A stretch of 64,000 nucleotides of DNA from an uncultured cyanobacterium (GCA_963766075.1 CAVYAN010000049.1:38097-102096); one strand, 5' to 3'; numbered from the stretch's first letter, positions 13,988 through 16,917 are shown. The notes: generated by a model from the letters alone, not told the origin. Translations and numbers: made by a program.

Positions 13988-14436
13988 ATGGCTGATCCTG
14001 TCACTTGGACCGCTGGCGCAATCGCCAGTCTGGCCGTTCAAAAATTCCTCGAATCCGGTGCTGGCGAGTTGGGCAAGAAGTTCACCACCGAGGCAATTAC
14101 TAAAATGGGCCTGCTGTGGGAGCAGGTGAAGACTAAGCTCATGGGCAAATCGGCCAAGTTGGACGAGGCATTGGTGAAAGTGGAACAGGGCGATCTGCGC
14201 TGCGTTGGATACCGTCGCCAAGCATCTGGATGTGGCCATGGACGAGCATCCCGACTTTGCGGCAGAACTCAAGGTTCTGGCCAATGAGATTCATGCCGGT
14301 AAGCTGCAAGACAATAGCAACATGGTCCAAAACGTGATCGGCAATGACAATAGGAATGTTCAAGCAAAGGCTGAACAGGGGGGGAAACAATTTATTGCTG
14401 AGAAGATGTTACTTTGGGGCGACCGAGGCGGATTGA
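13988..14436 (+). CDS. Bell-like helical protein with C-terminal N/Q/G-rich amyloid-like motif; two apparent 1-bp insertions (near 14196 and 14409)
   Basis: MADPVTWTAGAIASLAVQKFLESGAGELGKK...LWEQVKTKL...HPDFAAELKVLA then QDNSNMVQNVIGNDNRNVQAKAEQGGKQFIAEKM(YFGATEAD*) after frame repair. Confidence 0.65.
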
Positions 14437-16917
14437 CTGGAGTCGGCGGGAGGGGCACCGCCAAAGAAAAGTACCCCACACAACTTATCCCACAGCGGCG
14501 CGATCGCTTTTATTGGGCGAGACGATGACCTAGAGCGGTTGCACCAGCAGTTGCAGGCGGAGAGGTCCGTGGCGATTGCGGCGGTGTCTGGCATGGGCGG
14601 GATTGGCAAGACGGAGTTGGCGTTGCAGTATGCGCTGCGCCATCTGAACGCACCGCCCCCTGCGGCATCGACCTATGCCGGGGGCATTTGCTGGCTGCGG
14701 GCGCGGGAAGATCTGGGGCCGCAAATTATCGCCTTTGCCCAGGCCCATCTGAATCTGCCAGTGCGCGAGGATTTGGCCTTGGCAGCGTGGCCTATTGCTG
14801 GCAGCACTGGCGGGCGGGGCGGGTGTTGGTGGTGCTGGATGATGTGCAGGACTATGAGCACCTGCGACCGTGGCTGCCGCCGCCGGAGTCGCGCTTTCGG
14901 GTGCTGTTGACGACGCGGCTGACGCTGAGATCGCCGGTGCAGAATTTTGAAATTCGCGTGCTGTCGGAGCCCAAGGCGCTGGAGTTACTGGGCGATCACC
15001 AGCCCAGGGGCGCGAGGGTCCAGATCCTCGGTTTCTCGAAGAAGCCGGAGATCTGGAGCGGCAGATCTGCTCACTGGCTGGGCTATTTGCCCTTGGGGAT
15101 TGAACTGGTGGGGCGCTATTTGGCCAGACGCCGGATCTGCCGCTGGCGGAGCTGTGGCAGCGGTTGCAGGCGCAGAAGCTGGGGGCCAGGCGTTGTTGCG
15201 GGCGGAGCCGGGGATGACGGCGGCACTGGGGGTGACGGCGGCGTTTGAGTTGAGCTGGCAGGCTTTGACGGAGCCAGCGCAACGGTTGGCAGCGCTGCTG
15301 AGTCTGTTTGCTCTGGCGGAGATAGCTTGGCCGTGGGTGGTGGACGGTTGGCCAGAGGCAGACGCGGAAGATCTGGAGGAGTGGCGGGAGCAGTTGTTGA
15401 GGTTGAGTTTGCTGGAGCGGGTTGGGGCGGGGCGGTATCAACTGCATCAACTGCTGCGGGAGTTTTTTGCGCTGAAGTGGGCGCAGTACCCAGACCGGGA
15501 GGAGTTGGAGGTGGTGGTGTGGGATGGGGTGCTGAACGCCGCGCAAAGCAGCTCTGAACGCCCCGATCGCTCCTTGTTGGCAGAAACTAACCTGGTCCTG
15601 CCCCATTTGCAAGCAGCGATCACCCGCCGTGAAACGGCGGGGCAAGACGAGGCAGAAGCCCTCAGCGTAGCTTGGCTAGCGACACTCTACGACTCGCAGG
15701 GACGCTATGGCGAGGCGGAACCGCTCTATGCGCGATCGCTCACATTTACGAACAGCAGCTCGGCCCTGACCATCCCCATGTCGCCTCCAGCCTCAACAAT
15801 CTCGCCGAACTCTATCGCGCGCAAAGCCGCTATGCCGAGGCAGAGCCGCTGTTAACGCGATCACTTGCGATTCGGAACAGCAGCTCGGTCCCGACCATCC
15901 CGATGTCGCGCTCAGCCTCAACAACCTGGCCCACTCTATAAAGCGCAAGGCCGCTACGGCGAGGCGGAACCGCTCTATAGCGCGTCGTCGGCATCCACGA
16001 AAGCAGCTCGGCCCCGACCATCCCGATGTCGCCCAAGCCTCAACAATCTGGCCAGACTCTATAGACGCAAGGCCGCTACGCCGAGGCGGAACCGCTGTAT
16101 GCGCGATCGCTTGCGATTCACGAACAGCAGTTCGGCCCCGACCATCCCGATGTCGCCCTCAGCCTCAACAACCTGGCCCACCTCTACACGATGCAAGGCC
16201 GCTACAGCGAGGCGGAACCGCTCTTTAAGCGCGATCGCTGAGCATTCACGAACAGCAGCTCGGCCCCGACCATCCCGATGTCGCCACACAGCCTCAACAA
16301 TCTGGCAAAACTCTACAATCGCAAGGCCGCTATGCCGAGGCGGAACCGCTGTAAGCGCGATCGCTGGCGATTCGCGAACAGCAGCTCGGCCCCGACCATC
16401 CCGATGTCGCCATCAGCCTCAACAATCTGGCAGCACTCTACGAATCGCAAGGCCGCTACGCCGAGGCGGAACCGCTCTTCGTGCGATCGCTGGCGATTGA
16501 CAGAAAGGTGTTCGGCGCCGATCATCCCGATGTCGCCACCAGCCTCAACAATCTGGCATGACTCTACGTCGCAAGGCCGCTACGCCGAGGCGGAACCGCT
16601 CTATGCGCGATCGCTCGGCGATTCGCGAACAGCAGTTGGGAGCCAACCATCCCGATGTCGCCACCAGCCTCAACAATCTGGCATACCTCTACAAATCGCA
16701 AGGCCGCTACGGCGAGGCGGAACCGCTCTTTGCGCGATCGCTGGCAATCAAACAAAAAATGCTGCCGGAAAACCACCCCAGCCTTCAGCTTGGTTGGGAC
16801 AACTTTCGCTCCTTTCTGCAAGCCGTGGTGCAAGCCAACCGGGTCGCCGAACTCTCGGACCATCCCCTAACCCAAGCCCTGCTCCAAGACCTGCAAGGGG
16901 CGCAGAACGACGCCTAG
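14437..16917 (+). CDS. NLR-like STAND protein: NB-ARC NTPase plus about 9 42-aa TPR repeats; heavily frameshifted as assembled
   Basis: PHNL..FIGR, Walker A GMGGIGKT, Walker [30 protein letters not shown]; repeats HPDVAxSLNNLAxLYxxQGRYxEAEPL. Confidence 0.88.
15664..16790 (+). repeat. About 126-bp tandem repeats encoding TPR units
   Basis: AGCCTCAACAA recurs at 15789, 15914, 16036, 16161, 16290, 16415, 16541, 16666. Confidence 0.92.

Follow-up and report, generated by a model that had tools for sequence, protein, structure and literature searches.

A conserved in-frame stop codon and a covarying RNA element join Bell-type effectors to NLR proteins in cyanobacteria and suggest coupling by readthrough

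The window analysed here, a stretch of 64,000 nucleotides of cyanobacterial DNA (source genome G000, 85% complete, whose named relatives are cyanobacteria), carries on its plus strand a Bell-type helical effector ORF with a C-terminal N/Q/G-rich motif (13988..14436) and, past a single in-frame TGA (14434..14436), an NB-ARC-TPR ORF of the NLR type. As assembled, the effector ORF starts at ATG 13988, is spread across three frames and ends at this TGA. The preliminary description had restored it, by removing two 1-bp insertions, to a helical ORF of about 150 residues, and relatives' contigs lack exactly the bases in question, 14196 (run X2) and 14409 (runs X1 and X2); both repairs therefore stand, and the effector has 148 codons once the two extra bases are taken out. 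Comparison of 14190-14470 with other sequence thus bore out the absence of both bases, while the TGA itself is backed by homologues rather than letter for letter by reads. Record 3 of X1 spans 14367-14476 with one gap (base 14409) and 5 further letter differences, so that the junction holds no compensating indel.

The effector begins in the MADP/MEP manner, with a hydrophobic N-terminal helix and an acidic residue at position 2-3, and its homologue L002 is predicted to fold into an all-helical domain (residues 9-103) followed by a low-confidence tail. No Pfam family matched the ORF, HetE-N occurs in 14% of the members of its Atlas neighbour cluster, and fold searches with the predicted Bell model gave no match above background (best Z 5.0; a ZAR1 resistosome chain, at Z 4.1 and rmsd 3.7 with 72 aligned, lay within background). 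The BASS-like tail (14295..14418, plus strand) resembles, in a comparison by eye, the Bell-side training peptides of the published cluster Ccya03 (PMC8086366 supplement), and from the cluster size its family number is probably BASS9.

Past the TGA the frame continues unchanged as CTG GAG...STPHNL...FIGR, effector and NLR thus lying in one frame split by one stop, just as first described. The NB-ARC NTPase and a helical region (14437..15560, plus strand, 3' boundary approximate; FIGR motif at 14509, Walker A at 14590) are followed by about eight 42-residue TPR repeats and the C-terminus (15680..16917, plus strand); the first part is frameshifted as assembled and the second shows several frameshifts. 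Counted in frame from the stop, CTG is codon 1, ATC 23 and ATT 26, the first TTG is codon 35, the first GTG 45 and the first ATG 53, which falls inside Walker A. Since FIGR begins at codon 25, neither ATG nor GTG precedes it, and the first 90 residues of the NLR contain no copy of the tail motif (z -0.3), which agrees with the earlier claims that this NLR has no ordinary start before FIGR and no amyloid motif of its own. Effector and NLR gene are adjacent and collinear, the latter of the NB-ARC/NACHT-repeat kind found in Bell/BASS-NLR systems. In two read-sets the match to the window begins only at base 14433, one of them carrying a different upstream tail, and this would fit a module boundary at the stop.

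Several other features surround the locus. A large gene (7445-11735, plus strand), which we take to be of a membrane-assembly, TamB-like type, is apparently split by one frameshift near 8240-8300, a further sign of assembly indel errors. Two ORFs without a Pfam match lie upstream on the minus strand, one of 179 residues (12063-12602) and one with tandem IAIKxxN-type repeats (12948-13463), and a HicB-like antitoxin gene (17021-17203, minus strand) lies directly downstream of the NLR.

Compared with its relatives, the window NLR carries indels at 7 or more positions in 14786-15742, and 5/7 of its TPR spacings are not multiples of 3. Because it is frameshifted as assembled while its neighbours, genes of 1165, 665 and 749 residues, are intact, the window's copy may be dead, and an assembly error or a pseudogene, that is, an in-frame stop without function, may hold for it, the many indels speaking for this account. 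For the family the account is refuted: the junction recurs, under purifying selection, in some 200 further loci, finished genomes among them, and as a general explanation we consider it extremely unlikely.

A covariance model of the junction found matches in 71/151 genomes of one family, in 27/90 of the window's order and in 21/151 across the class, and every match that it listed was retrieved. Among the resulting 205 junctions, which come from 14 or more families of cyanobacteria, the codon is TGA in 200 cases, TAG in 4, TAA in 1 and a sense codon in 0, a tally to be read knowing that TGA is built into the model, which is hence biased against other codons and leans towards finding no sense codon. 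They comprise 182 distinct junctions (de-duplicated, window excluded; TGA 178, TAG 4) and the 23 weakest matches, not de-duplicated against the 182 (TGA 22, three of them one base off the model's register, and TAA in L252), four of which look decayed. Searches with the effector only gave an element-independent sample of 55 distinct junctions, 19 of which have a stop and then an NTPase frame without a start (that of L065 shifts frame after 70 codons); TGA is the stop in 18/19 of these, which carry the RNA element described below, versus 9/36 of the others, kin among them not being independent.

Frame 0 past the stop is open for at least 100 codons, or to the contig edge, in 176/182 loci and shorter than 100 codons in 6/182; the -1 frame is this long in 2 and the +1 frame in 0. 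Finished Nostoc and Acaryochloris plasmids show the same arrangement, with loci in Acaryochloris marina MBIC11017 (pREB4 and pREB8) and Nostoc sp. UHCC 0870 among them; RefSeq places the starts of these NLRs 48-150 nt downstream of the stop, one of them inside Walker A. The alternative offered in the preliminary description, coupled initiation at the overlapping TTG (14433) plus an assembly indel, fails on both counts: this TTG belongs to the -1 frame, in which nearly every homologue soon meets a stop, and the junction is unchanged in finished genomes. The readthrough reading put forward alongside it passed the test of a conserved stop, 205/205 junctions keeping the stop and none being an uninterrupted ORF. 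The base before the stop is T or C in 179/182, four-fold codon families included, and a P-site tRNA effect may lie behind this preference; the window shares the pyrimidine.

The 40 nt that follow the stop form a conserved RNA element, in which an 8-nt spacer leads into an H-type pseudoknot with covarying stems that starts at G9. In the window the spacer occupies 14437..14444 (plus strand, as for the whole element) and is gapless in 20/20 aligned sequences, positions 8 and 9 being invariant in 93/93. Stem 1 with its 8-nt loop (14445..14462) pairs 14445-14449 with 14458-14462 through five G-C pairs; stem 2 (14452..14476) pairs the G-run 14452-14456 with 14471-14476, with one bulged A in the window's subgroup; and an A-rich strand (14463-14470) within the pseudoknot joins stem 2. 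Stem 1 is paired in 99% of cells with 17 double changes across 20 sequences, and in 98.7% across 93 distinct sequences with the 8-nt loop, where 57 double changes compare with a shuffle maximum of 30. For stem 2, in which loop positions 17-20 pair with 36-39, the same 93 sequences gave 93.5% pairing and 16 double changes versus a shuffle maximum of 9, and sliding the register lowered pairing to 45-69%. Mapped onto a tree built from 97 NB-ARC domains, swaps of pair 17:39 fall in 7 separate clades and those of 18:38 in 2; pair 19:37 had no double change and is G-A in 14/97, a subgroup that includes the window's type and in which stem 2 is less regular, needing the bulged A. Long-loop variants have different stem 2 sequences and retain pairing, as read by eye. 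As G-U pairs exceed A-C pairs on the sense strand (93 vs 16), it is the mRNA strand that folds, and the covariation in both stems suggests that the pseudoknot would form in vivo.

Searches of Rfam 15 with 8 element loci (E up to 5) returned three weak hits below the gathering score, none of them on the element. The exact element pattern occurred 0 times in viral_contigs, only chance hits were seen in phages, and a plasmid collection yielded 9 records with the element, all cyanobacterial.

Selection past the stop changes along the message. Over the 13 element codons, 30 disjoint pairs gave a dN/dS of 0.90 with synonymous change halved (pS 0.107 vs 0.21-0.26), and codons 15-30 past the stop gave 0.27, near the 0.22 of the coding control (30 disjoint pairs); the element is therefore held as RNA and the codons beyond it as protein. 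This coding selection sets in before any ordinary start, since no ATG precedes the GR motif in 114/115 NB-ARC loci and none of ATG, GTG or TTG does so in 67/115. The stop is in this way conserved in frame between two ORFs that are both under coding selection. Nine loci with a loop longer by 1 nt translate the element in another frame and hence into a different peptide; a long NTPase-type ORF nevertheless follows in frame in eight of the nine, the exception, L198, being cut by a nonsense codon 20 codons in. Loop insertion with a compensating downstream loss, a natural frame experiment, is seen in L078, L089, L091, L117, L199, L226, L229 and L233, and comparison of L090 with L091 places the loss directly after stem 2. 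Such compensation means that the frame is set 5' of the loop, by readthrough or by a restart within the first four codons.

In the second case, ribosomes could terminate and, aided by the structure, re-initiate right after the stop at CUG, CUA or GUG, making the NLR a separate, motif-free protein, and this would also account for frame conservation, for the compensated loop insertions and for the coding selection seen ahead of the first ATG. The codon after the stop is CTA or CTG in 163/182 loci (CTA 88, CTG 75) and GTG in 6, so restart at the next codon is possible in 81/182. The commonest next codon is CTA, however, and CCG, CCA, CAG, AAG, CTC, ATA and ATC also occur there ahead of long open frames; all of these, CTA included, are unusual as start codons. 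Re-initiation moreover leaves the preference for TGA unexplained, and it leaves the NLR without the motif that ordinary effector-NLR pairs keep, and we regard it as improbable.

Those ordinary pairs provide a direct comparison. Among loci without the element, the effector tail motif is copied on the next gene in 23 of the 27 that have a following ORF (9/36 have none in range), and 7/23 of these motif-copy pairs are in frame, each NLR having its own start. In one such pair, L041, a motif nearly identical to that of the window is present on both genes. Among element loci, a motif copy on the NLR was found in 1/153 (L107, which has both). Element and motif copy therefore appear as alternative designs (1/153 vs 23/27), in which readthrough is what would supply the NLR with its motif. 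The window's locus conforms to neither known design: the own NLR start and matching N-terminal motif of the two-gene form are missing, no start lying before FIGR, and the single uninterrupted ORF of the all-in-one form is broken by the stop, as in all 205/205 junctions. A weak search among longer proteins for natural sense-codon fusions found 2 in 7998 scored candidates, one a Bell-CHAT fusion and the other (P0002) a Bell-motif-linker-degenerate NTPase fusion. P0002, known from its protein only, joins a Bell-motif protein without a stop to an NTPase with a degenerate Walker A through a linker resembling the element peptide. In G000 itself, a second Bell paralogue (L049, G000:C36:1843-5199, about 1430-2060) has a frameshift near its start and no element after it, and its tail presumably runs into an apparent transposase C-terminus.

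Taken together, these comparisons make it likely that programmed stop-codon readthrough yields, from one message, both a free effector and a motif-bearing effector-sensor fusion. At UGA, most ribosomes would terminate and set free the Bell-BASS effector of 148 residues. While this codon occupies the A site, the pseudoknot starting 8 nt downstream would lie at the entry channel for the mRNA, and a smaller share of ribosomes would decode UGA with a near-cognate tRNA, most likely that for Trp, and continue into a Bell-BASS-X-NB-ARC-TPR protein. This fusion would be the sensor, sharing the motif of the effector because the same codons encode it, and the output would be an abundant effector with a scarce Bell-BASS-NLR sensor. 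On sensing a phage cue through its TPR region, the fusion would oligomerise and cluster its motifs, and these would seed amyloid conversion of the excess free effector and so kill the cell.

In E. coli, UGA is the leakiest stop and Trp is mainly inserted (PMC11126739). The same source reports that G, not C, after the stop favoured readthrough in reporters, and the UGA-C context seen here thus draws no independent support from it. As no sense-codon version of the element was found, the putative Trp has no evolutionary witness. A tRNA scan of G000 gave 35 genes and no UCA anticodon; tRNA-Trp was likewise missing, so the set is incomplete, as is the genome (85%). A search with a prfB frameshift pattern found nothing usable.

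Other ways of passing the stop can be weighed against readthrough by a near-cognate tRNA. A deaminase that recognises the structure might edit UGA or UAG to be read as Trp in part of the transcripts, TGA and TAG each being one A-to-I step from TGG, and in 80% of cells the stop and the A-rich strand are paired in a possible lower helix. With just 1 double change, and interrupted in the window, that helix was set aside as unproven; the TAA locus L252, with an intact element and a long frame, would need two edits, and no candidate enzyme was seen among the neighbours at five annotated plasmid loci. Editing is on these grounds quite improbable. Recoding of another kind, by a ribosome that hops over the stop or shifts frame twice, could explain why the codon in the P site seems to matter, as the conserved pyrimidine suggests, and pseudoknots stimulate frameshifts too. 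Yet 19 different codons precede the stop across 126 junctions, by eye no matching landing codon follows, and the -1 and +1 frames close early, which makes hopping or a double shift highly improbable.

Bacterial SECIS elements lie directly 3' of the recoded UGA and form a SelB-binding hairpin. The conserved structure right after the UGA invites comparison with them, and selenocysteine insertion was rejected on several grounds: SelA was found in 0/151 genomes of the family in which 71/151 carry the element, and none was found in G000 (85% complete; the SelA control was positive in 2/14), TAG and TAA variants exist, and the structure is a pseudoknot rather than such a hairpin. The SelA result largely excludes this explanation, whose probability we consider negligible.

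The element is not confined to Bell effectors and NB-ARC partners. It also follows CHAT, TIR, TIR-EAD9 and alpha/beta-hydrolase effectors, and it precedes NB-ARC, NACHT, kinase and FGE-type domains. Partners outside the STAND class occur at L080, L122, L168, L241 and L245; they are a Ser/Thr kinase (L080), an FGE-sulfatase-type domain (L122) and ORFs in which hydrophobic stretches come early and Walker A was not found. In L180 and L197, TIR and TIR-EAD9 effectors stand before the element (TIR-EAD9 in L180) without an N/Q-rich motif adjoining the stop; homotypic coupling of a non-amyloid kind may therefore be another use of the cassette. Locus L208 (Acaryochloris plasmid pMB04, 2589-7049) has two tandem element pairs, with alpha/beta hydrolase and Bell effectors, beside a HigA antitoxin gene. 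The cis-acting pseudoknot, as it appears from covariation, and this spread to other effectors go beyond the preliminary description.

Such spread leads to a more speculative proposal, which we hold to be rather unlikely in its full form, that the stop-pseudoknot cassette is a portable switch shuffled among effectors and partners, with readthrough rising on infection or stress. Triggers might be a shortage of release factor, phage-borne stop suppression, or a ligand or protein on the conserved loop. The sensor would then be made, and amyloid death armed, only under disturbed termination, and the ribosome itself would be the immune sensor.

Were readthrough to operate as proposed, it would stand as a widespread instance, in the cellular genes of bacteria, of RNA-structure-programmed readthrough, the structure-dependent examples that we found being only in eukaryotic viruses. 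It would also be a third wiring of amyloid immune signalling, in which the ribosome sets the effector-to-sensor ratio and in which effector and sensor motifs cannot drift apart because one sequence serves both partners. It would explain a class of NLRs truncated by annotation, with starts placed 48-150 nt downstream, that screens for paired motifs necessarily miss. With about 200 natural variants of the 40-nt element at hand, termination control in bacteria becomes directly testable, and the element may be a compact tool for expressing fusions at a fixed ratio.

Compared with known systems, the loci are most like Bell/BASS-NLR pairs, described in two-gene and all-in-one forms (10.1101/2020.01.06.895854; 10.1101/2024.11.07.622273). 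In other members, according to these sources, the motif forms amyloid and infected cells are killed, and for Bab/Agp it is established that sensing seeds amyloid conversion and cell death (10.1101/2024.11.07.622273). The loci share with these pairs a small helical effector with an MEP-type N-terminus and an N/Q/G tail beside an NB-ARC/NACHT-repeat gene, the alternative effectors CHAT, TIR and alpha/beta hydrolase, and their occurrence in multicellular cyanobacteria. They differ in that the NLR as described there either starts independently and bears a motif copy or is part of an all-in-one protein, whereas here it has neither start nor copy and is joined by a stop and a pseudoknot; the main texts of the two papers contain neither 'stop codon' nor 'readthrough/read-through'.

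The RNA resembles the MoMLV gag-pol signal, an 8-nt spacer plus a pseudoknot of the H type from G9 (PMC13517186), in having a stop, an 8-nt spacer, stem 1 from G9, conserved spacer and crossing-loop bases and an element that is itself translated. It differs in lying in bacterial chromosomal or plasmid genes, in having UGA instead of UAG, and in the more compact knot (5 + 4-5 bp, roughly 32 nt vs 50), and the likeness is one of analogy, not homology, with no sequence relation claimed. Bacterial UGA readthrough is cited in the same paper for the Q-beta coat (3-5%) and cat-86 (1-6%), and conserved in-frame stops in prokaryote genes have been described (PMC7918605). UGA leakiness gives two co-linear products in Q-beta coat and cat-86, as proposed here; PMC13517186 gives no downstream structure for them, and none of these cases appears to concern an effector-sensor pair. 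With EAD systems (PMC7159879; PMC8195603) the loci share homotypic adaptors on both effector and sensor, with the difference that EAD systems duplicate the adaptor on two genes; the main texts of these papers mention neither readthrough nor stop codons. In the literature searched, largely open-access, neither pseudoknot-dependent readthrough in bacteria nor an NLR arrangement of this kind is described. As the arrangement departs from the defining features of both known BASS forms and the RNA belongs to no described family, novelty appears, on the sequences compared, to lie in the arrangement and in the RNA as a family; the proteins are of known kinds and the RNA layout has a viral precedent.
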